A stretch of 48,115 nt of DNA. It comes from a virus. The position numbers were made by a program, and so were the translations under genes. The notes below the pieces were generated by a model that did no database searches, was not told the origin of the DNA, and saw only the letters and a program-made list of their open reading frames with translations. Shown piece after piece: positions 13,104 through 46,538 of this stretch; the stretch's first letter is position 1; every line of letters begins with the position of its first letter. The stretch lies in IMG/VR virus record IMGVR_UViG_3300030580_000016, one strand, 5' to 3'.

Positions 13104-13775
13104 ATGATAACATACGAATGTCCTAATTGTCGCAAGATGGCTGGAATATCTTTAGACTTAATATATTCAGAAAGATTCAAGAATTGGTCCTGCGATAATT
13201 GTTGGAAGTCTTATTCGGACAAATATCTGCGAGACCAGAGAAAGGGTGAGATGAAAGAAGTAATTGTTAATACGACCGCGAACGGAACAATTTACGAACT
13301 GAAATTCAAAACCCTCCCGCGTAAGGGATACTTCGCGGAGAATATTCAACCGATCATTAACCTAATAAAGGCAATGATCCCAGCAACCGCACGGGAATAT
13401 AACCCAAGCACATATACCTGGGGGCTTGGTGCTGAGTATTGGCCGCCGCTAAAAACCAGCATGGAGGCGCTTGGGTTTAAGATTACATTCTTAGATAAGC
13501 AACCCGCTAGTGGTCCGAAAGTGCATGTACCAACGGATTATGCTGAGAATTTCTACTACACTGCACCAACTAGCACGAAGGAGTCTACACAATCAATTGC
13601 TGCTCAACTTAGTAGTTACTTGGGTGTAGAAATAACCACCCAAGACTTATCAGACCTGAAGAAACTCTACCGCGCCAAAGCCCGCGAATATCACCCGGAT
13701 ATGGGTGGGGACGCCAAGAAGATGAGCGAGCTTAATAGACTCTGGACGCTCTACTCTAACAAGGAGGTAATGTAA
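13104..13775 (+). CDS. J-domain protein with N-terminal zinc ribbon (223 aa)
   Basis: AGGAG RBS 7 nt upstream. N-terminal CPNC...CDNC. C-terminal LKKLYRAKAREYHPDMGGDAKKMSELNRLWTLY carries the HPD tripeptide in a helix II/III J-domain context. Confidence 0.8.
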   Translation: MITYECPNCRKMAGISLDLIYSERFKNWSCDNCWKSYSDKYLRDQRKGEMKEVIVNTTANGTIYELKFKTLPRKGYFAENIQPIINLIKAMIPATAREYNPSTYTWGLGAEYWPPLKTSMEALGFKITFLDKQPASGPKVHVPTDYAENFYYTAPTSTKESTQSIAAQLSSYLGVEITTQDLSDLKKLYRAKAREYHPDMGGDAKKMSELNRLWTLYSNKEVM

Positions 13776-16010: not shown

Positions 16011-16201
16011 CAACACATGATAGAACTATAGCGCTATGCGACGAACTTTCGAAGATTTGTGATATTCTCATAGACCTAATTGGCCATGTAGAAAAGCTCA
16101 AATCCGAACAAGAAGAACTCCAAAAGCAAGCAGCCGAGCACGAGCAAGCAATTGTAGCTTTGAAAGAGAAGTTATTCTACGCCGGGATTGGTGATGATTA
16201 A
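16007..16201 (+). CDS. Hypothetical coiled-coil protein (64 aa)
   Basis: AAGGAG RBS. ATGA-type overlaps with both neighbours. Confidence 0.6.
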   Translation: MTTHDRTIALCDELSKICDILIDLIGHVEKLKSEQEELQKQAAEHEQAIVALKEKLFYAGIGDD

Positions 16202-17283
16202 TGAGCGCCCTAACAACCGAACAATCCCAAACCGTACTTCACCTTTGCATGAAACTCTCCGCGCTCAAAATAAGCGGCGAGTTCAAGCAAGTAGAAGCCG
16301 GGCCGATAGTATCAACCTACTACTTCACACTTGGCGCGGATATTCCGATTGCTAAGATAATGAAATCTGAGGAGGACTTGGCGCTCGCAGTAGGGGCGCC
16401 GTCTGTACTTATAACCAGACTGGGGGCACAAATTGCGATTGCGATTCCTAACAAGACAAAAGAAACAGTTAGTTACGATAAATGCCTGCACGCTCTTATG
16501 CAAAGCTCTGGACAAGGGCTTCCTATTATGCTCGGAGTTGATACTAAAGGTACTCCAAACACAATTGACCTGCGAGAATCTCCACACATTCTCGCAGCGG
16601 GTTCTACAGGCTCAGGTAAAAGTGTACTCCTTGCAGCTATCATTAGCGGTCTTGCGACTAAACTCTCTTCGAGAGAAATGAAACTAATGCTAGTTGATAC
16701 TAAGCAATTAGACCTGCCGCTATTCGCATCCCTACCACACACCGTAGAAGTCGCGGATGATATAGAGAAAATCTATGTTCTATTCGAACGCCTCATGCAA
16801 ATAGTCCGACAGCGCACGGAAAAAATGAAAGGAGTAGCACGAAACATAACCGAGTACAACCGCATAACCGGCGCGGCACTACCATACTACGTAGTAGTAA
16901 TCGACGAGTACGCAGATATCGTAGGCGCGGATAGTAGCATCGCGCTCAAGTTACAGAAGCTCGTCCAAATCTGCCGAGCCGCTGGAATCCATGTAATCCT
17001 TGCAACACAGCGGCCCTCAGTTAAAATCATAACCGGCGATATCAAAGCGAACTTCGGTACTCGCATCGCACTAAAACTACCAACCGGCTACGATAGCAAA
17101 ACAATCATTGATGAATATGGAGCCGAGCAGCTGCTAGGAAAAGGAGATATGCTATGCAAATTGAGTTCCGACGAACAAGTTACACGGTATCATGGTCCTA
17201 TGCTAAGTATGGATCATATTTCAAACGTACTCGCTAATTGTGATGCGATTCGAGATAGTTACAAGCATTTGAAACTTAATTGA
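16201..17283 (+). CDS. FtsK/SpoIIIE-family DNA-translocase-like ATPase, soluble motor domain only (360 aa)
   Basis: GPIVSTYYF alpha/beta-domain motif, Walker A GSTGSGKS, Walker B YVVVIDEYAD, and ILATQRPS. No TM segments and no gamma domain seen. Confidence 0.85.
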   Translation: MSALTTEQSQTVLHLCMKLSALKISGEFKQVEAGPIVSTYYFTLGADIPIAKIMKSEEDLALAVGAPSVLITRLGAQIAIAIPNKTKETVSYDKCLHALMQSSGQGLPIMLGVDTKGTPNTIDLRESPHILAAGSTGSGKSVLLAAIISGLATKLSSREMKLMLVDTKQLDLPLFASLPHTVEVADDIEKIYVLFERLMQIVRQRTEKMKGVARNITEYNRITGAALPYYVVVIDEYADIVGADSSIALKLQKLVQICRAAGIHVILATQRPSVKIITGDIKANFGTRIALKLPTGYDSKTIIDEYGAEQLLGKGDMLCKLSSDEQVTRYHGPMLSMDHISNVLANCDAIRDSYKHLKLN

Positions 17284-26071: not shown

Positions 26072-27248
26072 TCCAATAACCGAAGCGCCATCTGCGTATG
26101 TAATTTGGAGTGCAATCTCAGTAATAAGTGCAGTTCTAAAAAAGAAAGTATGGGTACGTCGTGGAACCTACAAAGTATACCCAAATCAGTACATTGTTCT
26201 CGTTGGACCGCCCGGCGTTGGGAAGGGAACAGCAATCCATCCAGCTCATTCGTTCATTAAGGACTACAAACCTGCTCTCAGCAACTACCTTTCCGATCGT
26301 ATTACGGCGCCTAAAATCATTGAAAAGCTTGCAAACGGATTCCAAACCAACGCAGTAGTAAATGGTATGGTAACAACCGCTACTGAAAGCACTGCGGTAC
26401 TAATGGCAACGGAGCTTAGTACTTTCCTTGGTTCCTCAGATTGGATGACAAGTTTCCTATGTGACACATGGGATAGAAATGAGTTTGAATATGACACTAA
26501 GAATAAGGGCAGCAGCCACATTAAGGACATGTGCGTTAGCCTTATTGGTGCTTGCGTACCAGATTTTATTAGGAAAATCAACGGGAATAAAAACGCTGCA
26601 GAAGCTATTAACGGTGGGTTTACCGCTAGAACGATGTTTGTATTTGCTAATGAGAAGTCCAAGAAGCTGGCTTGGCCAGTCGCACTTGAAGATACTACTG
26701 GCGGAAAGGAAATAATTGCAAACCTCCGCCACGATCTTGAACAAATCGCGCACGTACATGGCGAATTTACATTCGACAATGAGGCTTATCACGAATGGAT
26801 TGCATTTTATAAAACTATCAATGCTACAGATTCTGATTCGGATGTTGTAAGATACTTCAAATCAAGGCAGGATATTCATGTCCTTAAAGTCGCAATGTGT
26901 CTTAGTGCAGCTAGTGACAATCTCCTTGTTATTAACCGATGGTGTTTGACGACAGCTATAGCTCTAGTTCAGGGGGTGTTAGATACACTTGACATTACCT
27001 TTAGAGGAGTAGGGGAATCATCACTATCAGAGGCAACGGCAAAATTGCAGACGTACATTGAGAGAAAGGGCCTTTGTTCGAGACGGGAACTTATTCGGGA
27101 TTGTCATAGACACGCTACGGTTGAAGATATAGATAGAATTATAAATACATTATTACAGATAGGACTAATTACTAACAAGATCGTAGGTGGCACTCAGTTC
27201 TATGAGTACGTACACACGACTAAAAAGAAAGTGGTACAAATGCCATGA
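26016..27248 (+). CDS. P-loop NTPase, putative replicative helicase (410 aa)
   Basis: AAGGAG 11 nt upstream. Walker A LVGPPGVGKGT. Positioned immediately after the polymerase gene. Family not resolved (DUF3987/SF3-like impression only). Confidence 0.55.
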   Translation: MPPRKLSMNWISSYAAALDPITEAPSAYVIWSAISVISAVLKKKVWVRRGTYKVYPNQYIVLVGPPGVGKGTAIHPAHSFIKDYKPALSNYLSDRITAPKIIEKLANGFQTNAVVNGMVTTATESTAVLMATELSTFLGSSDWMTSFLCDTWDRNEFEYDTKNKGSSHIKDMCVSLIGACVPDFIRKINGNKNAAEAINGGFTARTMFVFANEKSKKLAWPVALEDTTGGKEIIANLRHDLEQIAHVHGEFTFDNEAYHEWIAFYKTINATDSDSDVVRYFKSRQDIHVLKVAMCLSAASDNLLVINRWCLTTAIALVQGVLDTLDITFRGVGESSLSEATAKLQTYIERKGLCSRRELIRDCHRHATVEDIDRIINTLLQIGLITNKIVGGTQFYEYVHTTKKKVVQMP

Positions 27249-27667
27249 GGATGCGGAGAGGAAGCCCATTAGAGAATTACTGGATAGTACTTGAAAATAG
27301 TTGTTGGGAGTGGCAAGGCTCTAAGTGCAAACGTGGCTATGGTAGATATCGAGTTGGCAGTACCATAAAACAAGCGCACAGAGTTGTGTATGAAAAATAC
27401 AAGAAGAAGAAGATAGAATCTGGGCTGGAACTAGACCACAAATGTAGAAACCGCGCTTGTGTGAACCCTGACCATGTAGAAGAATTGACACATCTAGAAA
27501 ATGTTTTAGTTGGTGAAACTACAAAGTTAAAAGAATTTGAAGTAAAACTTATTAGGGATCTATGGGAACATGGTAAAGTTTCTCAGGGAGAACTGGCTAT
27601 TAAGTTTAAAGTAAGTCAATCAAATATCTCTGATATTATAACCAGAAAGACTTGGAGAAATATATAA
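27245..27667 (+). CDS. HNH homing-type endonuclease (140 aa)
   Basis: CWEWQGSK...GYGRY...AHRVVYE...LDHKCRNRACVNPDHVE...HLEN is the classic phage HNH_3 pattern. C-terminal HTH-like tail. Confidence 0.85.
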   Translation: MRMRRGSPLENYWIVLENSCWEWQGSKCKRGYGRYRVGSTIKQAHRVVYEKYKKKKIESGLELDHKCRNRACVNPDHVEELTHLENVLVGETTKLKEFEVKLIRDLWEHGKVSQGELAIKFKVSQSNISDIITRKTWRNI

Positions 27668-28463: not shown

Positions 28464-28503
28464 AAAGACCCCACTACGATGTTATGTAGTGGGGTATATT
28501 TTT
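28462..28503. terminator. Bidirectional rho-independent terminator between the convergent arms
   Basis: CCCCACTAC (28469-28477) pairs with GTAGTGGGG (28486-28494). AAAAAGA lies 5' and TATATTTTT lies 3', so each strand sees a U-run. Confidence 0.8.
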
Positions 28504-34531: not shown

Positions 34532-35806
34532 TCATAGCAGTCCCATTCTACTAAGTTCATAGTATCTCTGAGTCGTGGTCTTCTGTAGGTCAGTGCGGAT
34601 TTGCATATTAGGGAGCTTGATATCCTCGATCTTTGCGTCTACTATCTCCCACGCATCTCCAATGCTATTTCCGTAGCCAAGTGGAACCGCGATAAATCCA
34701 CTATGCCCTGCTGTTACTAGCTCGCCCTTCTCCAACATAACATCATACATATAAGTAGAACCATACTGCCCAGGCCCTATTCCTTTTACCGGCACTCCCT
34801 GCGGATGCTTGCCCTTAATCTCGGTAGGATACGGCGGAATACTAAGACGAGTCCCGGCTCCGAACTCGCCACGCCAACTCTCATCCGGCACTTGCCCAGT
34901 TGCTACTTTCTGAAGCATCTCGCCAAAGTTTCCGCCGTACATATTAATAAGAGTCGCACTTGCATCATACCCAAAACGCGGAGTCCACTCTAGCCCGTAG
35001 AGTCCAGAATCAGTTGCAATAGTATTAAGATCAATCATTCCACAATAGCCGACGCTCTTTAGATAGTCCTTCATCTTGCCAAGACCATTCTTGAATAGCT
35101 CGCTGGACTCCCGCAAGTAGAACACCAGATTCCCGGCACAACCAGTATTCGGTCCGTGATTCCCGTTCATAAACTTCTTTTCTTCTAGGGTCACATTTAC
35201 TAAGTAGAAGTTATCCCCATTAAAATACCCCTCTACTGATACCTCGGTGCCCTTAATAAACTCCTGCAATACAAACGGAGCGCCCTTAGTTTTAGCATAA
35301 AGCTTATCAATACAAGCCAGCATATCTTCAGGACTACTGGCTACATAAGTAGTATCAGTATCATTCTCCTGCCCGCCATCTGGTTTGTATACGAACCTCT
35401 TATTCGTCTTCTTAATATGCGCCTTAGCAGCACCTAGCTCGGAAAATCTTTCATATGGCGGCACTTGTATTCCGCACTCCTCCATAGCTTCCAGACCAAA
35501 CATTCTATCATCTTCAACAGCACAATTAAAAGCGCCATCGCCAATAGTAGGACAGAGCGTTGCGCTATACTCTGCTTGACGCTCGCGCCCAGTGAGATCG
35601 AAGATACTAAGATCGTATTTCCCATAATTAGGATACCCTTTACTACCGCGCGCCCGGATATAAGGAGAAGGGACTATGCCTTTGAGAATGTTCTCGTAAT
35701 CTGGTTCTGTGAGGAATGTATCTACTTTGTGCCCTTCTTCGAGCAGCCGCAAAGCAAACCAAAACCCATAGCCAGTGTAACTATTAAGTGCAATCCTCAA
35801 TGCCAT
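34532..35806 (-). CDS. PurD-fold ATP-grasp ligase, diverged (424 aa)
   Basis: GGAG RBS. Collinear with GAR synthetase motifs: VYKPDG, LQEFIKGTEVS, GPNTGCAG, LEWTPRFGYDA. The PurD N-terminal GNGGREHA is replaced by NSYTGYGF. Confidence 0.75.
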   Translation of the reverse strand: MALRIALNSYTGYGFWFALRLLEEGHKVDTFLTEPDYENILKGIVPSPYIRARGSKGYPNYGKYDLSIFDLTGRERQAEYSATLCPTIGDGAFNCAVEDDRMFGLEAMEECGIQVPPYERFSELGAAKAHIKKTNKRFVYKPDGGQENDTDTTYVASSPEDMLACIDKLYAKTKGAPFVLQEFIKGTEVSVEGYFNGDNFYLVNVTLEEKKFMNGNHGPNTGCAGNLVFYLRESSELFKNGLGKMKDYLKSVGYCGMIDLNTIATDSGLYGLEWTPRFGYDASATLINMYGGNFGEMLQKVATGQVPDESWRGEFGAGTRLSIPPYPTEIKGKHPQGVPVKGIGPGQYGSTYMYDVMLEKGELVTAGHSGFIAVPLGYGNSIGDAWEIVDAKIEDIKLPNMQIRTDLQKTTTQRYYELSRMGLL

Positions 35807-35827
35807 AATCCCATCTCCCTTGGTTAA

Positions 35828-35953
35828 TTACTGCTTGCTAGTAGTCTTCATTGACAACTTCGGCGCTTTGGAGGTATTGCTCTTGTTGCACTCCACGCTC
35901 TTAATACATGCACGTACTGATTCCCGGCTCTTAGTTGCTTCCTGTCCAGCCAT
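35828..35953 (-). CDS. 41-aa Lys/Ser/Thr-rich micro-ORF upstream of the ATP-grasp gene
   Basis: AAGGAG 8 nt upstream of ATG 35953. Manual translation MAGQEATKSRESVRACIKSVECNKSNTSKAPKLSMKTTSKQ. Its stop lies 21 nt before the ligase ATG. Confidence 0.5.
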   Translation of the reverse strand: MAGQEATKSRESVRACIKSVECNKSNTSKAPKLSMKTTSKQ

Positions 35954-35964
35954 TTTATATCTCC

Positions 35965-37740
35965 TTAGTAGTTAAAGTCGTTGGCGTTTAGTGGATTGTT
36001 ACTATCAGGCTTTGGTCTAGTACGCCTGAATCTTTTTGGCTTGCCGCTTGCGCTATCGGCTTTGGTTGGCAGTATCTGATGAGAAGCAACACCACCAATC
36101 CCATACGGAGTAGTATCAGCCATCGCATCTCTAGCAAGCGGCTTCCACGCATCTGGATGCCTGTTATCAGTGTGCGCTGCTTTATATGCATCCTGCGCGC
36201 CCTGAATTAGCATGTTGGCATTCGGCCCCATAATCTGGCCTGCTAGGTTATTACGTGCCGCGCCTCTAGTATATCCAGTCGCTACTCCGAAACTTGCAAG
36301 ATGGCTCAGACTATCAATTGTATTCAGAGCTATTCGTGCGGCACTTGCAGCATTTTGTCTTCCAGCGAGCGCGTCATAAACAACACCTGCTGGAGTTGCT
36401 TCAACTCTATTAGCAAGATGCTTACCCGGATCATCCCAGTCGTGGCCTATTAGTAGCCGCTCTGCTTCGTAGAGCGTAGCCCCTAGTACTGGAAACGCCA
36501 TACTCATAAGCCCGATGTTCCTAGCTATTCCTACAAAGTCCCCTTGCTGGTACTGACGCTTGAATACATTCTGGATAAACCGTGCCTGATTAGCGGTGTA
36601 TGAATGGAATGCGCCCATTACTCTAAATATAGGACTGCTTTGTCCAAGTGCGGTACGTCCTTCTCCTTGATTCAAGAATGCCCGTACATTCGTCCCGTGG
36701 TAATAAGCCTTCTGTATATCACTAGCATCAAGCTGAAACTTCTGCGCTTGTATCTTCATAGGATCAAGCCCGAGTTCTCTTAGTACCGGGAGCGCCTTTT
36801 TACCATTCCCTCGTGCCAGATTCTGCACCGCCTCATCCGCTGCTAACTTACTCGCGTGCGCGCTCATCAGAAGAGTATTATATCTAACAGAAGACATTCC
36901 AGGTATGTACATGTTCTTGTGAATAAACTCACCAACACTACCGGGCATGTATTGCGAGATCTTACCAGCCTTAAAAGCCTCATGCTCCCTATATCCATTC
37001 ATTGTTAGTTCGCTAATAGCGTTCGTTGCAAGTACAGTAGCCTCGGCTCCCTTGCGTGTACTGGGGTTGAAAGTCTGGTCCAGTACTTTTGCGTAGGTCT
37101 GAAATCCGTCACTCATCAGTATATTCAGATTAGAAGTAAGATGCGGAATAGCGGCCTTGTACGCAAGTATCGACTGATGTACTCGCCCAGCCTTCTCGAT
37201 AAGATTAGGGTCACGATACTTAGAAGGCGGGGTCTGAAACCTAGTATCCTCGTTCCCCTTCCTCATATCTCGGTCGAACTTAGAAAGCCCCTCTGCATCC
37301 GGTGATTCCTTGAACAGAATATTAAGATGGTCCGCTAGAATATCCGCCCGATTCTTACCAACAGTCTTCTCAACATGCTTAAGCACCGCTTGTATTCCAG
37401 AACGATTCGGCCCAAATACATTCTCCGATGCTTGCTTCTGCGCTTCTTTAGTAATATCAGCCGCAGGCTTTGTACCGCCTGCTAGTTTAGCTTGCTCCAC
37501 GCCCTTAGAAGTAAGCTGGTTTACCTGCTCTTTATACGGCCCTTGGTAAGTATCCCACAGGTGCTTAGCAGCAGGGATATCTTGGAATGCGGCTTCCGGC
37601 CTAAACATACCATGATACAGTCCAGTCTCAACTCCCTCGGCTACTCTATTAACAGCCACTGGATTAGCAGCAACCTTACTTCCGATCTTTTCAACAGCAC
37701 CCTTAGCAAGATCCGCAACCGCGTTATAAAATCCGCCCAT
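35965..37740 (-). CDS. Large virion protein, internal/ejection-protein-like (591 aa)
   Basis: Long ORF in the tail/internal-protein block. No enzymatic motif recognised. Confidence 0.8.
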   Translation of the reverse strand: MGGFYNAVADLAKGAVEKIGSKVAANPVAVNRVAEGVETGLYHGMFRPEAAFQDIPAAKHLWDTYQGPYKEQVNQLTSKGVEQAKLAGGTKPAADITKEAQKQASENVFGPNRSGIQAVLKHVEKTVGKNRADILADHLNILFKESPDAEGLSKFDRDMRKGNEDTRFQTPPSKYRDPNLIEKAGRVHQSILAYKAAIPHLTSNLNILMSDGFQTYAKVLDQTFNPSTRKGAEATVLATNAISELTMNGYREHEAFKAGKISQYMPGSVGEFIHKNMYIPGMSSVRYNTLLMSAHASKLAADEAVQNLARGNGKKALPVLRELGLDPMKIQAQKFQLDASDIQKAYYHGTNVRAFLNQGEGRTALGQSSPIFRVMGAFHSYTANQARFIQNVFKRQYQQGDFVGIARNIGLMSMAFPVLGATLYEAERLLIGHDWDDPGKHLANRVEATPAGVVYDALAGRQNAASAARIALNTIDSLSHLASFGVATGYTRGAARNNLAGQIMGPNANMLIQGAQDAYKAAHTDNRHPDAWKPLARDAMADTTPYGIGGVASHQILPTKADSASGKPKRFRRTRPKPDSNNPLNANDFNY

Positions 37741-37750
37741 CGTATTACTC

Positions 37751-40144
37751 CTATTGGATTATTCCGCCGAGCTTCTTGTCTGCTACGTGCAGAAGGATAT
37801 TGTGAGAGGACTCAGCTAGTGTGCGCTTGAAAGTGATGTACTCATCAGGGGTTGTGATATTAGCAGAAGCCGCTTGTATTGCCTTCACAGTGGCATCAAA
37901 CCCCTTCAGTGCATGTGGATGTTGCTTCAACGCCGCTCTAGCAGGAGCCAACATAGCAGCATCCGTTTCCTCACTTAATTGATGCTGCCACTTTGTCCAA
38001 CTAAACGGTGCAGTAAGTTTCGAGCTTCGGAACATATTACCTTCAGAAGCCAGCCGTCCAGAGCCAGCAAGATTAGAAAGATGCACATGGAGCCAATCTG
38101 CTTCTTTCTGGATATCTTTAGTAGAGGCATTCTCGTAGCCTTTCAGTTGTTTGATTCTATATACGAGCGAGTTTGCCAAGCCCTCGGGGAGTTGTTTGCG
38201 GTTGCCGTAGTGATAGAGGAATTCGTGCGCGGCATTTTCAAAGTGAAGTCTATTACCGCCAGCGTCTCGAAGAAGTTTCTTGAACTTAATAAGACCTTCC
38301 TTCGATCTATCACTAATAGCTTCTGCTACTTGAATCCGATTGCGAGGCGCTCTTAGGTATGCATTGGTATCTACCTTGTGCTGAGCGAATTGCTCAGGAC
38401 TAATACTAGTCCCCTTAGTCCGCTTCTCAGCTTTGTTCAGCTTCTTAGTAGCTCCCTCTACATTGGATATCCCGGTTTCTTTAGCGATAGCAGAGATGTT
38501 ATTCTCTGTAACCGCGCCGGGAATATCAACGCCGAGCTTCTCCAGACCCGCTGCGAAGTTATTGAATGCTGGACTAGCAATACGCGCCTTAGCAATATTC
38601 TGTGTGACTTCATCTTTGTGGAGTTCAGGAAGATGCACAGGTGCTTCTAGTGCGGCCTGATTTATCTGCTGCCAACGCTCTGCTAGTACCTCAAGCTTAT
38701 CCTTATCTTCCAGCCCCACTAGTGGCTTGCCGTACTTAGCCATAGCGATTGAGTTCTGAGATACCTTCTCGGCTTCGTGAAGTTTAGCCATTACTGGATC
38801 CATCTCATTACGCTTAGCTTCTGCGCGTCGTGCTAACTCCTCATACCCCTTCTGCTGCGTTTCACGGCTGCCATACGAATACACATTCATATCCGCATCT
38901 GTGAAATGTCCAGTAGTATCAGTCGCAGGGTGTACTATAATCCCATGTGTTAGTTCATGGTCCTTGCCAATAGTAAGGTCAGTTAGATTCCCCGGCTTCA
39001 TAAACCAATCATCAGCATGGTTCATTTCCGCGTGCGCGCTTTGTGCTACATCCTGCGCGAATGGAATCCCGCCCATCGCGATAGTATTAGCGGTCCACTT
39101 CTTAATCAGCGGCGCACTAGCTATCTTCTGAATTAGCTTCTGGCCAGTTTCGCTCTTAGCAAACTCCCCACCTACAGCACTAGCATACTTCCCTCCAATA
39201 GCCGCCGCTCCCTCAAACTCCGCAACTCCCTTAGCTTCATTAGCCGCTGTAGTTTTATTCCCGCCACTCTCACTAAGACTCGCCAAGTAGAAATCGCTCG
39301 CACTAATAATCCGCTTCGCTACGAACTTCCCCACCGGAGTAGAAGCAAGACGAGCGGTAAGAGGTAATACCTTCGCAGCAGCTTCCCCAGCGCGCGCCAC
39401 AGGAGCAACAGCGCCGATTGCTTCATAGAGTGGCAAAGTTGCAATAAGCTCTCCAGTAAGACCAGCAAGGCTCCCGATAACAGTATCCCGAGGATGAGTT
39501 TGAATCCAAAAGTCATCACTCTGGATTTTCGCACGCTGAGCATCTTCGTAGTTAGATACATTTCGCTGAATGCTCTTTTCTATGTTTGCACTCTTAGCAA
39601 GCAAGCCAGTATCATCTTTATGAGAGAAGTAACTATCCAATCCATGCATAGATGAAAAGGCTTTGTTAGTAACCTTAGCGCCAAATAGCGCAATTCCGTC
39701 CCACGCTTTCGAGGCGCCTACTACTAAGTCCTTCCCCATCTGGTCTTGACGATCTGTACTATAAGACTCACTCAGCTTCTGCTGCTTGCCAGCCGTGTGG
39801 ATATTATAATCCCTAATACTAGTATCACGGCCGGTAGCACCAACCCAAGTATTTTTATCCGGTACAGGAAGATGAAAGCCTGCATACGACTTAGGAACGT
39901 ATTTATCATAAATACTAGCCCTCACTTTCGCCTTATGCTCTTCAGGGAGCGCCTGATACTTAGGGTCGGCTTTTACATCCTCCAACCGCTTAGCAATAGC
40001 CGCTCCCCTACTTGCAAACGAAGGTAATGATAGAATCTTATTAGTGTCCGTAGTTGGCTTCGTCGTCGTCGCCGCCGGATTCGTCTGAGTCGTCGGAACC
40101 GACTGATTCGAGGTCGGCATCTCCAGCGGATTTATCGTTGCCAT
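37751..40144 (-). CDS. Large virion protein, internal/ejection-protein-like (797 aa)
   Basis: GGAG 7 nt upstream of ATG 40144 (MATINPLEMPTSNQ...). Overlaps the 3' end of the upstream gene by 104 nt. Confidence 0.8.
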   Translation of the reverse strand: MATINPLEMPTSNQSVPTTQTNPAATTTKPTTDTNKILSLPSFASRGAAIAKRLEDVKADPKYQALPEEHKAKVRASIYDKYVPKSYAGFHLPVPDKNTWVGATGRDTSIRDYNIHTAGKQQKLSESYSTDRQDQMGKDLVVGASKAWDGIALFGAKVTNKAFSSMHGLDSYFSHKDDTGLLAKSANIEKSIQRNVSNYEDAQRAKIQSDDFWIQTHPRDTVIGSLAGLTGELIATLPLYEAIGAVAPVARAGEAAAKVLPLTARLASTPVGKFVAKRIISASDFYLASLSESGGNKTTAANEAKGVAEFEGAAAIGGKYASAVGGEFAKSETGQKLIQKIASAPLIKKWTANTIAMGGIPFAQDVAQSAHAEMNHADDWFMKPGNLTDLTIGKDHELTHGIIVHPATDTTGHFTDADMNVYSYGSRETQQKGYEELARRAEAKRNEMDPVMAKLHEAEKVSQNSIAMAKYGKPLVGLEDKDKLEVLAERWQQINQAALEAPVHLPELHKDEVTQNIAKARIASPAFNNFAAGLEKLGVDIPGAVTENNISAIAKETGISNVEGATKKLNKAEKRTKGTSISPEQFAQHKVDTNAYLRAPRNRIQVAEAISDRSKEGLIKFKKLLRDAGGNRLHFENAAHEFLYHYGNRKQLPEGLANSLVYRIKQLKGYENASTKDIQKEADWLHVHLSNLAGSGRLASEGNMFRSSKLTAPFSWTKWQHQLSEETDAAMLAPARAALKQHPHALKGFDATVKAIQAASANITTPDEYITFKRTLAESSHNILLHVADKKLGGIIQ

Positions 40145-41591
40145 TAGAATCTCCAAGGAGTGCAGTCGGTAATTGGGTCATAAAATTAGCAATCCCACTG
40201 CCAACCCCGGAACCCGAGCTAGGTGTTTCTTTCGTTTCAGGTGGTGCATTTGGATCAAGATTAAACTTAGAAGCCCGCATCTTCTGCAATTGCATCAAGT
40301 AATCAGTGTCCATCTTCTTCTGGAGTTCTACTTGTTTTAGCTGTTCCTGCTTTTGCTGCGGGTTTGCGGCGGAAGCATTAATATCTAATACTTTCTTCCC
40401 GGCAGCTAGGATAGATTGATTGACAGTATTTATATCCTTATCAACAGCACCCAATGCATCAGTCTTTATCTTTGTCTGATTCTCTTTCCCGAGTCTATTA
40501 TCATCCGCGATCTTCAATGAAGCATTAACCTTCATTGTAGTCTCAGCAAGCGAGTTAGCATTCCGCATCGCAACTCTACGCATTGCCGCCGCGTTATTAG
40601 CATCCGCTAGTGCAGCTTTCGCTATATCACCTTGGTACTGTTTCTGTAAATCAGTAGCCGCTTTATACTCAGCCCGCGCGTTAGTATTACCTTCTTTAAT
40701 CGCCTGCATCTGAGCCGCGGATTCTGCTTGGATCATTTTTGGTATTACATACTGCGTTAGCTGCTTCTGTGCCGCTTGTTTCTGTGCGAGAGCCGCAGCG
40801 TACTGCGGGTTGTTCTCGATAGTTTTCTGGTCCTTAGCAAGTGCTGCATCAGCGTATGGAGTTGCGCTTCTTGCTGCTGGCTGCGCTTGTGCAGGCTGTT
40901 GCGGTTGAGCTTGCGGTTGCGCTACTGGCTTCGGCGCATTACCATCACTCGCTCCCTTAGATGCAAGCTGTGCTACTTGATGCTCAGCAGGATTGTCACT
41001 ATTAAAGGCACCTGCCGCTTTATGTTCCTTTACAGCTTCCTGAAATGCTTTAATCTCAGGAGTTTTATTCTTATCCATGTCCGTGAAACTAATATCCATA
41101 GCCTTCTGAATCTGCTTAGCCTTCTTCGGGTCAGTAAGAATAGCCTCTAATTGCTTCTTATTCGCTGCGAGTACTCCCTGCGCGATCTTATTATTAGGAT
41201 CTTGCTGAAGTACCTGCTGAGCATTAGCAACATTCTGCTTCGCGCTCATTACATTCTTGATATCATCCTTAAGTCGGTCCTGCTTGTTCTGTTCGATCTT
41301 ATTAACCGCGCCACCAACCAAACTCAGCAGCGACCCAATTCCATTATTCTTTTTAGTCTGCTGCTGTTGTGGATTAGTGCCAGTAGGTCTAACAGGAGTC
41401 CCAGTAGTAAATTGCGGCACATTAGGAACACTACGTGGCTGAGCTAACTGCGTGCCCTGCGAATAAGGAGACGGTAGTGGCGCATTAGCCTGTGCAGCTA
41501 TTTGGCCAATAACATCAGCAGCCCCCGACTGACTAACAGGAGCAACTTGCGGTGCTTGGATACTCGGTACTGTAGGTACATTATCAGCCAT
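40041..41591 (-). CDS. Q/A/K-rich coiled-coil virion protein with acidic C-terminal tail (516 aa)
   Basis: Low-complexity AQPQAQPQQPAQAQPAA segment and long helical Q/K/A regions. C-terminus DADLESVGSDDSDESGGDDDEANYGH. Confidence 0.8.
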   Translation of the reverse strand: MADNVPTVPSIQAPQVAPVSQSGAADVIGQIAAQANAPLPSPYSQGTQLAQPRSVPNVPQFTTGTPVRPTGTNPQQQQTKKNNGIGSLLSLVGGAVNKIEQNKQDRLKDDIKNVMSAKQNVANAQQVLQQDPNNKIAQGVLAANKKQLEAILTDPKKAKQIQKAMDISFTDMDKNKTPEIKAFQEAVKEHKAAGAFNSDNPAEHQVAQLASKGASDGNAPKPVAQPQAQPQQPAQAQPAARSATPYADAALAKDQKTIENNPQYAAALAQKQAAQKQLTQYVIPKMIQAESAAQMQAIKEGNTNARAEYKAATDLQKQYQGDIAKAALADANNAAAMRRVAMRNANSLAETTMKVNASLKIADDNRLGKENQTKIKTDALGAVDKDINTVNQSILAAGKKVLDINASAANPQQKQEQLKQVELQKKMDTDYLMQLQKMRASKFNLDPNAPPETKETPSSGSGVGSGIANFMTQLPTALLGDSNGNDKSAGDADLESVGSDDSDESGGDDDEANYGH

Positions 41592-45681: not shown

Positions 45682-46164
45682 TTACTCCTTGCTATAAGTA
45701 CATTCCCCATAAAACTCAGGCATGTGCAAAGGACTTAGATGCAGTGTCTCCGGAGTTATTAATTGCATGTAACCGGGCTGGCAATTGAGCATGTAAATAG
45801 CTCCCTCGTATGCCTTAGAACACACCCACTGACTACAAATCTCCCGGCCTTGTGTATCTAACTTGCGGTTCTTAAACATCAATCCAAGAATATCTAAGTA
45901 ATTATAACCAGTCCCAACATCCTTGAATGCTGAAGCCAAAATAGTATCTATCTGCTTCTGGCTACAAGCAAGTGAGTATCTGCGCTCTCGTGTTGGTACG
46001 CAATAGTCGTATGGTCTATTCTGTATTCCCGTACCAGCATGTGCACCGATCCAGCCAGTTCCAGAATCAATCTCAACATGATCCCAAAGGCTATTAGTAA
46101 CCCAGTTGATCCCAACTGCGATTATGCCTGTACCATTTACATAGCGAATCTTAAATGCACTCAT
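45682..46164 (-). CDS. Permuted papain-fold (NlpC/P60 superfamily, YiiX/C92-like) amidase candidate (160 aa)
   Basis: His-first, Cys-later order: LWDHVEID ... REICSQWVCSKAY, as in circularly permuted NlpC/P60 enzymes. Confidence 0.45.
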   Translation of the reverse strand: MSAFKIRYVNGTGIIAVGINWVTNSLWDHVEIDSGTGWIGAHAGTGIQNRPYDYCVPTRERRYSLACSQKQIDTILASAFKDVGTGYNYLDILGLMFKNRKLDTQGREICSQWVCSKAYEGAIYMLNCQPGYMQLITPETLHLSPLHMPEFYGECTYSKE

Positions 46165-46538
46165 ACTGTCTCCAACAGCACGTCAATAATAGTAGTCGGT
46201 TGGCATCCAACCCACGCACAGACATTAGCTTCGTATGCGCTAGTATCATTATGGTCAGCAGGCGGTGCGTAGCGGCATAGTGCTTGTCGCACGTTTAGTC
46301 CTTTATAACTTGGTGTTTGGAACAAAGCTTTCATAGCTGCAAACCCAGTAGCAGTATCGGGGAAGTAAGCGAATCTCGCAACCTCATTATAACCATCAGG
46401 AATAACTTCTAATCTCGTAGCCCCATGCGCTTGTGCGAATGCTCCCCAGTTAATATCTCCTGGATTATTATTCCTAGTCGCACGACCATTAGGAATCCCA
46501 AATCCTTCTTCTCTCGCAATAGCTTGCAGTAAATTCAT
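46161..46538 (-). CDS. Conserved-looking phage protein with REEGF...NNPGDI motif (125 aa); possible cell-wall-related function
   Basis: GGAGGG RBS. ATGA overlap with the amidase-like gene. I recall the motif pattern from phage proteins but cannot name the family. Confidence 0.6.
   Translation of the reverse strand: MNLLQAIAREEGFGIPNGRATRNNNPGDINWGAFAQAHGATRLEVIPDGYNEVARFAYFPDTATGFAAMKALFQTPSYKGLNVRQALCRYAPPADHNDTSAYEANVCAWVGCQPTTIIDVLLETV

Follow-up and report, generated by a model that had tools for sequence, protein, structure and literature searches.

The stretch of DNA studied here, IMG/VR virus record IMGVR_UViG_3300030580_000016 (48,115 nucleotides, all of which we call the window), is an apparently complete, circularly permuted phage genome. 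On the minus strand of its late operon, a micro-ORF (open reading frame) is followed after 21 nt by a longer ORF (Table 1). An earlier note, written from the letters alone, had read the longer ORF as a ligase with the fold of PurD, the glycinamide ribonucleotide (GAR) synthetase, and had proposed that the micro-peptide might be its new acceptor. Both ORFs lie at the positions it gave, on the minus strand, and all of the ligase motifs it quoted are present (VYKPDG, LQEFIKGTEVS, GPNTGCAG, LEWTPRFGYDA, VTAGHSGFIAVPLGYG and NSYTGYGF). Judged by sequence and predicted structure, the longer ORF encodes a PurD-fold ATP-grasp ligase with a new specificity, and the enzyme is predicted to be active.

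Table 1. Features of the ligase locus and its surroundings, in window coordinates.
Feature	Position	Strand	Basis or remark
Ligase coding sequence, 424 aa, ATG start, PurD-fold ATP-grasp (phage family 1)	34532..35806	-	Pfam, TIGR00877, AlphaFold2 (AF2), Foldseek
Ligase N domain, residues 1-95	35522..35806	-	S-Y-T-G-Y-G-F-W in place of the PurD GGREHA loop; no variation at Y10 or G14 within the close clade
Ligase B and A (ATP-grasp) domains, residues 96-310	34877..35521	-	Alignment, Pfam, AF2
GPNTGCAGN phosphate-loop motif, residues 218-226	35129..35155	-	Family alignment
LEWTPRFGYDA catalytic motif, residues 272-282	34961..34993	-	E273, Mg ligand; R277, acyl-phosphate Arg
Ligase C domain, residues 311-424, GARS_C-like	34535..34876	-	QxRTD motif common to PurD (QIRTD in the window)
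Ligase Shine-Dalgarno sequence, AAGGGAG	35815..35821	-	8 nt before the ATG
Micro-protein coding sequence (type A), 41 aa, ATG start	35828..35953	-	Conserved 21-residue N-terminus; basic, low-complexity Lys/Ser/Thr-rich tail
Micro-ORF Shine-Dalgarno sequence, AAGGAG	35961..35966	-	Overlaps the TAA stop of the upstream 591-aa gene
Upstream late gene, 591 aa, family F2	35965..37740	-	Position suggests an ejection or internal virion protein
Downstream tailspike, pectate-lyase-like beta-helix	32266..34446	-	Conserved N-terminal anchor domain common to post-ligase genes in related phages
Bidirectional terminator, perfect hairpin	28468..28495	.	End of the ligase-containing late operon

The fold assignment draws on several searches. 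Pfam matches the ligase to GARS_A (E=6.9e-13; score 49 bits, cutoff 27), with further matches to ATP-grasp_3 and, weakly, to GARS_C, and the best phmmer matches among PDB sequences are all PurD, at 3e-15 and weaker. An AF2 model made from an alignment with 32 homologues has a predicted local distance difference test score (pLDDT) of 91.2 and a predicted template modelling score (pTM) of 0.89. Its four-domain N-B-A-C fold is that of GAR synthetase (EC 6.3.4.13; PDB 1GSO, 2QK4, 2YW2), and the top fifteen PDB neighbours returned by Foldseek are all GAR synthetases, matched over their full length (template modelling, TM, scores of 0.71-0.78). PurK is also among the nearest neighbours, and lower ranks include biotin carboxylase (TM up to 0.68) and PylC (0.59). 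The PurD fold that the earlier note had recognised by eye, for which it asked for a predicted structure, is thus borne out. The ligase is not PurD itself, since it scores 63.4 bits against the NCBIfam purD equivalog (TIGR00877), for which the cutoff is 288.

To assign residue roles, which were taken from studies of the human and Cryptococcus enzymes (PMC2978367, PMC8449271), we used an explicit alignment of the ligase with the PurD proteins of E. coli, Acinetobacter and Staphylococcus; PurD residues carry human numbering. The lysine of PurD IKADG corresponds to K141, the ATP hinge glutamate E191 to E182, and the ribose-binding E197 to E188. K219, R220 and N229, at the ATP phosphates, are K210, K211 and N220. 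The Mg ligand E288 is E273, and R292, which serves the acyl-phosphate and glycine, is R277. These eight ligase residues are invariant or nearly so across the aligned family, in keeping with the earlier description of an ATP-grasp ligase whose ATP site is intact. Along the B and A domains, the features run from K141 through an acidic lid loop (DGGQENDTD), the hinge Q181-E182, E188, E208-x-K210-K211 and GPNTGCAGN to D259-x-N261 and LEWTPRFGYDA. The protein has in common with PurD its ATP and acyl-phosphate residues, the GPNTG loop, the E..R.G block, the C-terminal RxD motif and a similar length.

The substrate sites are different. None of the four phosphoribosylamine (PRA) residues is kept (R13 is Y13, E14 is G14, D295 is Y280 and R385 is F371), and only one of the four glycine-site residues is identical (R292, as R277), with one conservative change (D217 to E208) and two replacements (D295 by Y280, E297 by A282). 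Seen by motif, the phage protein has other residues in place of the PurD GGREHA loop, of both acidic residues in GDPE (Asp and Glu) and of the Arg in the C domain, and the PurD-type GLAAGK lid has become the acidic loop. The earlier note had said that conservation of all catalytic and substrate residues would make this an ordinary metabolic gene; the alignment shows otherwise. It had also called the substrate site degenerate, which is right as to the residues lost and wrong as to the nature of the change. The replacement residues Y10, G14, C223, D259, N261, W274, T275, P276, Y280, D281 and an IPPYP motif are themselves invariant or nearly so in the close clade, so the pocket has been remodelled under selection and has not decayed. 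Y10 and G14 are nearly invariant over the whole aligned family, Cys223 is kept in all but one of thirty-four aligned members, and the two most distant aligned members carry conservative variants at the replacement positions. From these features we defined a superfamily of phage PurD-fold ligases by the motifs GPxTGCxGN, DxN, LE[FW]TPRFGYD, IPPYP and QYRTD, a length of ~420-440 aa and a gene located within the virion module of a phage. Every one of these motifs occurs in the window protein, the last as QIRTD.

The family to which the window ligase belongs (family 1) is large. A search of 5.8 billion proteins returned 947 matches, of which the best 120 have at least 52% identity and many lie on contigs of 46-50 kb. 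An exhaustive search of 50%-identity representatives gave 283 clusters at E<=1e-30, a far stronger relationship than the link to true PurD. The family signature LE[FWL][TS][PA]R[FLM]GY was matched by 314 IMG/VR stretches. With one extra position added, the signature found ten confirmed loci in 185,579 bacterial and archaeal species (one genome each), all of them on contigs of metagenome-assembled genomes (MAGs), mostly from Acidobacteriota. The superfamily thus looks essentially restricted to phages. In one case (L174, CAVYJF010000007.1), a ligase and a gene of the F16 family described below form a pair within a 1.59 Mb Acidobacteriota MAG contig. The position of this pair on a long bacterial contig suggests that it lies in a prophage and that phages of this group infect Acidobacteriota. 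Further ligase matches come from Terracidiphilus and Acidobacteriaceae bins. The phages that carry the family are abundant in soil and peat, and their hosts are probably Acidobacteriota.

GenBank phages include a single full-length ligase homologue, unannotated in MW202796 (L001) and lying downstream of virion genes; a GNAT gene is also found within the virion module of that phage. Ligase, micro-ORF and upstream genes all lack a family in PHROGs and a match in PADLOC, and the most similar viral structure in BFVD reaches a TM of only 0.45 to the ligase model. We found no description of this ligase family in the literature. The statement in the earlier note that a PurD-fold enzyme has no described role in a phage tail module agrees with what we found in PHROGs, BFVD and publications. 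Podovirus-encoded ATP-grasp ligases whose target is likewise unassigned have been reported in LUZ24-like and phiRIO-1-type phages, where a 291-aa ATP-grasp protein is encoded in the early region with a GS-like amidoligase, a GATase and a GGCT (PMC3890496). Those proteins belong to a different, shorter ATP-grasp family, lack the PurD fold and are not encoded in virion modules.

For the genomic context, we called genes in 180 loci and clustered their proteins. The ligase always falls within late or virion modules in these loci, across at least five genome architectures. Class I, the window type, has proteins of ~800 aa and ~590 aa (F2), the micro-protein, the ligase, an optional protein of ~125 aa (F16) and tail fibres. 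Class II begins with an SU10-adaptor-like protein and continues, after other genes, with proteins of ~600 aa and ~500 aa, a small protein of ~80 aa (type B), the ligase and tail fibres. Class III leads from the major capsid gene to a slot for cell-wall enzymes (M15 peptidase, Tlde1-like and others; it is also described as an endolysin slot), directly followed by the ligase, a protein of ~240 aa and a virion protein of ~530 aa; tail genes follow the ligase, and no small hydrophilic ORF lies beside it. In class IV, a protein of ~1700 aa, F16 and a hydrophilic protein of 55-72 aa (F38) precede the ligase, which ends the operon. Overall, a tail-fibre-like gene occurs no more than four genes after the ligase in 101 of 155 unique loci, and the N-terminal anchor domains of these fibre genes fall into two clusters, with variable C-termini.

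The F16 protein (~125 aa; L106 5156-5545 and thirty other loci) has a conserved, enzyme-like pattern, H..RY..GDW..HE..E..C..D..PG..APY..H..E..W, and is without a Pfam or PHROG match. Its gene recurs beside that of the ligase in surroundings that differ widely, among them L010 (where ligase identity is 30%) and L174; no F16 homologue is present in the window.

A second family of ligases came to light when relatives of the window phage were fetched irrespective of ligase presence, with the gene for the DUF3987 protein as an anchor. (A 544-aa anchor gave one locus only.) Among the relatives with enough flanking sequence, a family 1 ligase is present in seven, and L197 has a virion module of an unrelated kind. 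The remaining one, L201, retains F3, F2 (37% identity) and the tail-fibre anchor; its ligase slot, however, is filled by a 438-aa protein invisible to tblastn. In L201 (11753-13654, minus strand), this protein is followed by a GNAT acetyltransferase (Pfam 4e-12). The 438-aa protein has no significant match in Pfam or among PDB sequences, and the 514 clusters of the family it defines (family 2) include none with a precomputed Pfam match. A profile-profile comparison (hhalign) links families 1 and 2 over 368 columns with 99% probability (E=7e-18), and the AF2 model of family 2 (pLDDT 91.6) has PurD first among its fold matches (TM 0.56-0.70). In phages with a P22-type portal, the family 2 gene is flanked by those of the portal and the capsid. 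Families 1 and 2 exclude each other: no locus examined has both, and the window has no family 2 homologue. One of the P22-portal-type phages (L218, 6711-8425, minus strand) has genes for a glycosyltransferase of family 2 and for a sugar epimerase/dehydratase 2-4 kb from its family 2 ligase.

Two further features bear on function. Inteins (Hint plus LAGLIDADG) interrupt two ligase homologues, each in one of the two most conserved catalytic motifs. In P0145 the insertion site is GPSSG/CAGN, so that the family Cys (C223) is the +1 extein residue, and in P0196 it is LEFTPR/CGY. Inteins characteristically sit in active-site motifs of indispensable enzymes. The second feature is fusion to HAD-like modules. 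Nineteen family 1 ligases have a C-terminal extension of ~105 aa in which the four HAD motifs (GVDLDGTLA, LTARG, KD and YDDR) can be made out by eye in that order, and L172 encodes this module as a gene of its own immediately after the ligase. Longer members of family 2 also carry HAD-like modules (DFDGV, ITGR, [ED]DT), N-terminal in P0476 and P0499 and C-terminal in P0433. Altogether, HAD-like fusions occur in three architectures over both ligase families, with one adjacent stand-alone copy, and they are the strongest available clue to the chemistry of the ligase. Given these three architectures and the GNAT gene in L201, one substrate or product most likely carries a phosphate ester. A known cellular pair offers a parallel: in Campylobacter jejuni, the ATP-grasp amidoligase Cj1438 acts with the HAD phosphatase Cj1435 on capsule glucuronamide. 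The likeness, a works-like analogy only, is that ligation of a carboxylate to a phospho-amine is followed by dephosphorylation by a HAD enzyme, which matches the association of the ligase with HAD-like modules. The Campylobacter system differs in being cellular, in its capsule locus and in having known substrates, whereas the ligase here belongs to a phage virion module.

The micro-ORF is a genuine conserved gene. Homologues of this kind (type A) number forty-three unique sequences of 41-62 aa in the loci examined, and a profile search finds them in 153 database clusters, all unannotated. They share an N-terminus of 21 residues, M[AS]GQ[SA]A.L[ST].KE[AV].A.Q.R[VI][QE], over which the rate ratio dN/dS is ~0.2-0.4 (22 N-terminal codons, unsaturated pairs). 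Their tails differ from one homologue to the next and are basic, with a median net charge of +4 and 13% K, 12% S and 12% G; the protein is small and basic, and its tail is probably disordered. A Shine-Dalgarno-like motif precedes forty-one of the forty-three ORFs. The earlier note gave the composition of the window copy (7 Lys, 7 Ser, 4 Thr, 3 Glu and 2 Cys) and its 21-nt distance from the ligase ATG exactly; it also saw the AAGGAG correctly, though the spacing to the micro-ORF's start is 7 nt and not 8. An antisense ORF (35820-35975, plus strand) was rejected: the antisense frame is open in fifteen of the forty-three loci, against all forty-three for the sense frame. Two longer variants are homologous to type A (84% and 75% in hhalign); the type B and F38 small proteins are unrelated to it.

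Micro-ORF and ligase sit in a late operon that encodes an SU10-type portal, the major capsid protein, large unannotated proteins, the micro-protein, the ligase, the pectate-lyase-type tailspike and a 1239-aa protein. It converges at the bidirectional terminator with an early and replication block on the plus strand (~9.5 kb to 28.2 kb), whose products include an FtsK-like ATPase, a PD-(D/E)XK nuclease, AAA_24, DNA polymerase A, the DUF3987 protein and HNH. A scan of the late operon found no terminator or credible promoter that would separate the micro-ORF or the ligase from the rest, and the ligase gene is thus predicted to be co-transcribed with the virion genes. (One terminator-like hit, 34870-34846, lies inside the ligase ORF without a T-run and was dismissed.) The placement described in the earlier note, between internal-virion or ejection-like genes and tail-fibre genes, holds good for this late virion operon. 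So does its remark that the genome has no other nucleotide-metabolism gene, which extends to all ORFs scanned and includes the absence of any pur gene.

We lean, without great confidence, towards an active ATP-grasp carboxylate-amine ligase that is a descendant or sister of PurD and no longer makes GAR; the alignment and the AF2 model both point this way. By the standard mechanism, ATP would convert a carboxylate to an acyl-phosphate, which an amine would then attack. One substrate or product would bear a phosphate ester, following the PurD-like logic of a small acid and a phospho-amine, or a phosphate-bearing group would instead be transferred onto a virion or host macromolecule. The enzyme would act during late infection or once the virion has delivered it, and the micro-protein would be at most a docking factor, carrier or acceptor in this lineage. 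A more specific version, which we consider doubtful, is that the ligase, in phages of several lineages and with optional HAD-like and GNAT partners, covalently decorates a virion component by adding a small phosphate-derived group, either an amine or an acyl. Within the window's clade, the component so modified might be the 41-aa micro-protein, or the ejection or tail-fibre proteins.

Several observations weigh against the reading that we lean towards. The ligase has lost the canonical Mg-ligand Asn of the ExN motif, where it has Thr (E273-W-T275). On the strand adjacent to T275 there is an invariant D259-x-N261, new in the ligase. The equivalent residue is Gly in PurD and the Mg ligand Glu267 in PurT (PMC2978367), and D259 and N261 may compensate for the loss. 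The HAD assignment consists of motif order and one weak PDB match, to the phosphatase domain of T4 Pnkp (E=0.05, motif I aligned); the modules have no significant Pfam match, and no homology was detected between those of families 1 and 2. The window phage has no HAD-like module, fused or stand-alone, and any phosphatase step that is needed must therefore be host-supplied or dispensable. Finally, every genome sampled from the clade has both a type A micro-protein and a superfamily ligase, and unrelated small hydrophilic proteins occupy the same slot before the ligase in classes II and IV. Both patterns are also predicted if enzyme and peptide form a pair.

On that alternative, the ligase would recognise the N-terminal helix of the micro-protein and modify its tail, for example by acylating a Lys epsilon-amine or by extending or amidating the C-terminus, to give a modified small virion or effector peptide. 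We judge it slightly more doubtful than the decoration of a virion component. Besides the co-occurrence and the shared slot, it draws on the tight packing of the two ORFs, on the leader-like conserved N-terminus and hypervariable tail of type A, and on the presence among the fold neighbours of PylC, which acylates a Lys epsilon-amine. The ligase directly follows the micro-ORF in seven of seven sampled places found by the profile search. The lid loop is also more acidic in classes with a small upstream protein, but phylogeny confounds this trend, and type B, far from being basic, has no net charge by residue count, so we did not use it as evidence. Against the pair, the micro-ORF tracks the upstream gene, starting no more than 32 nt after its stop in thirty-six of thirty-six cases, and inserted genes separate it from the ligase in six of forty-three. 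The earlier note asked whether homologous loci keep the two together: those of class I do, and in class III, L001, L010 and the P22-type contexts the ligase has no such peptide beside it. In L201 the micro-protein is ~70% identical to the window copy over the N-terminal helix, even though the ligase has been swapped for family 2. The small proteins that fill the slot (types A, B and F38) are not homologous to one another.

Comparison with known peptide-modifying ligases does not help the pair. The small ORF directly upstream of an ATP-grasp ligase, and its peptide with a conserved helix at the N-terminus and variation towards the C-terminus, resemble a microviridin-type graspetide system. By the graspetide criteria of a leader motif and conserved core partners (PMC8939145), the type A N-terminus has no 'Phhx(1,2)h' or Pro-hydrophobic motif, and the tail has no conserved column, with no conserved Thr, Ser, Lys or acid positions; the window copy has no Asp or Glu in its tail at all. 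There is also no GG cleavage site and no peptidase or exporter gene, the ligase is of PurD type and not RimK/MdnC type (Pfam gives no RimK-type match), and the pairing is not kept across the ligase family. ATP-grasp action on a small protein or an unstructured protein tail, as in RimK-S6 and LysX-LysW, would be chemically plausible here. Those enzymes belong to another ATP-grasp clade, and their acceptors have conserved, acidic C-termini (...EE in S6, ...EDWGE in LysW). The type A C-terminal residue varies (among forty-three, it is Lys in 20, Gln in 6, Gly in 5, Cys in 3 and some other residue in 9, so that Lys is the commonest), which makes chemistry of the RimK/LysX type unlikely. Of the proposal in the earlier note, an ATP-grasp ligase with a new acceptor, the PurD-fold ligase and its new pocket thus stand; a graspetide- or RimK-like pair with the micro-peptide is not supported as stated, and the idea of an enzyme-peptide pair is weakened. 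The micro-protein belongs to the preceding block of virion genes; it is at most a lineage-specific partner and probably not a general substrate of the family.

The ligase could instead be a packaged effector, loaded into the capsid together with the ejection proteins, with or without HAD and GNAT partners, and delivered into the host to modify a target or metabolite there as infection begins, in the service of takeover or anti-defence. We think this unlikely; it is compatible with the active ligase that we prefer and does not exclude it. The window ligase gene is aligned with those of large unannotated proteins, in the place that podoviruses give to ejection-protein genes, family 2 directly follows the portal gene, and the enzyme is conserved and intein-invaded. 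Packaged minor head proteins (MuF-type) classically have their genes in this slot after the portal. No N-terminal targeting signal was identified in the ligase, however, PADLOC and anti-defence matches are lacking, and the class III ligase lies between endolysin and tail genes, not among ejection genes. It is still less probable that the enzyme tailors surface glycans or the cell wall, by amidating uronic acids or by aminoacylating amino sugars or peptidoglycan precursors, so as to alter a receptor for superinfection exclusion or to decorate virion glycans. This idea, which proceeds by analogy with the documented role of an ATP-grasp amidoligase in capsule modification, fits the adjoining pectate-lyase-type tailspike, the HAD-like and GNAT partners typical of glycan tailoring, the cell-wall hydrolases in the neighbouring slot of class III, the sugar genes of L218 and the homologue on the 1.59 Mb Acidobacteriota contig, which may be a prophage. 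Yet the ligase behaves as a core, vertically inherited late gene and not as a sporadic moron, it has no promoter or terminator of its own, and no integrase was seen among the window ORFs scanned. Loss of the canonical Asn, replacement of the GLAAGK lid and the structural-gene neighbourhood would suit a catalytically dead structural or assembly protein that keeps only the fold. The near invariance of K141, E182, K210, K211, E273 and R277 across the aligned family, inteins placed exactly in catalytic motifs and fusions to partner enzymes make this highly improbable. We give the least credence of all to an ordinary auxiliary metabolic gene (AMG), that is, a divergent but functional PurD that boosts purine synthesis. 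JGI pipelines do label family members 'phosphoribosylamine-glycine ligase', viromics papers report purD as a viral AMG, once on a 46.6 kb phage genome (PMC11097641, PMC12043954), and the fold is that of PurD. On the other side are the score far below the equivalog cutoff, the lost PRA and glycine residues, the lack of other pur genes or a pur operon, the late virion operon and the near absence of the family from cellular genomes. The purD label is almost certainly wrong for this family, and purine-AMG inferences drawn from such genes, which may include the purD genes of those papers, therefore need re-examination.

The rest of the window adds a number of observations. Scans found no Rfam families or tRNAs, and a megablast search with 20 kb of the window gave no match among GenBank phages. 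The tailspike starts with a signal-peptide-like hydrophobic segment ending ...ASA/QSTTVSGT, and the fibre of L201 (7528-11694, minus strand) has a matching N-terminal segment, ...CLA/QSTTVSAT, which is conserved and unusual for a tail fibre. Within the head module, 46161-46538 (minus strand) encodes a 125-aa cell-wall-hydrolase-like protein (phrog_873); class IV phages have the same domain embedded in the ~1700-aa proteins encoded ahead of the ligase. A ClpP/crotonase-like protein, labelled 'enoyl-CoA hydratase' in PHROGs, is encoded at 45682-46164 (minus strand), a few hundred bases downstream from the capsid gene, and this position makes a prohead protease or scaffold likelier than a metabolic gene. 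Upstream of F2, an 801-aa ORF (37751-40156, minus strand) with a TTG start overlaps the preceding 516-aa ORF (40041-41591, minus strand) by 116 nt, and translation of the 801-aa ORF probably begins further downstream. ORFs of the early region (13104-13775, 16201-17283 and 27245-27667, plus strand) encode a DnaJ-domain protein, an FtsK/SpoIIIE-type ATPase and an HNH endonuclease-MarR-like fusion.

The system can be tested as two or three proteins: the ligase, the micro-protein and HAD or GNAT partners from relatives. Invasion by inteins, more than 280 clusters of family 1 together with a Pfam-invisible sister of 514 clusters, placement among virion genes and fusion to HAD-like modules all point to an important enzymatic step tied to the production or delivery of virions. 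If the ligase does decorate a virion component, this step would be a previously unknown ATP-dependent pathway of post-translational modification, acting in virion morphogenesis or delivered by the virion.

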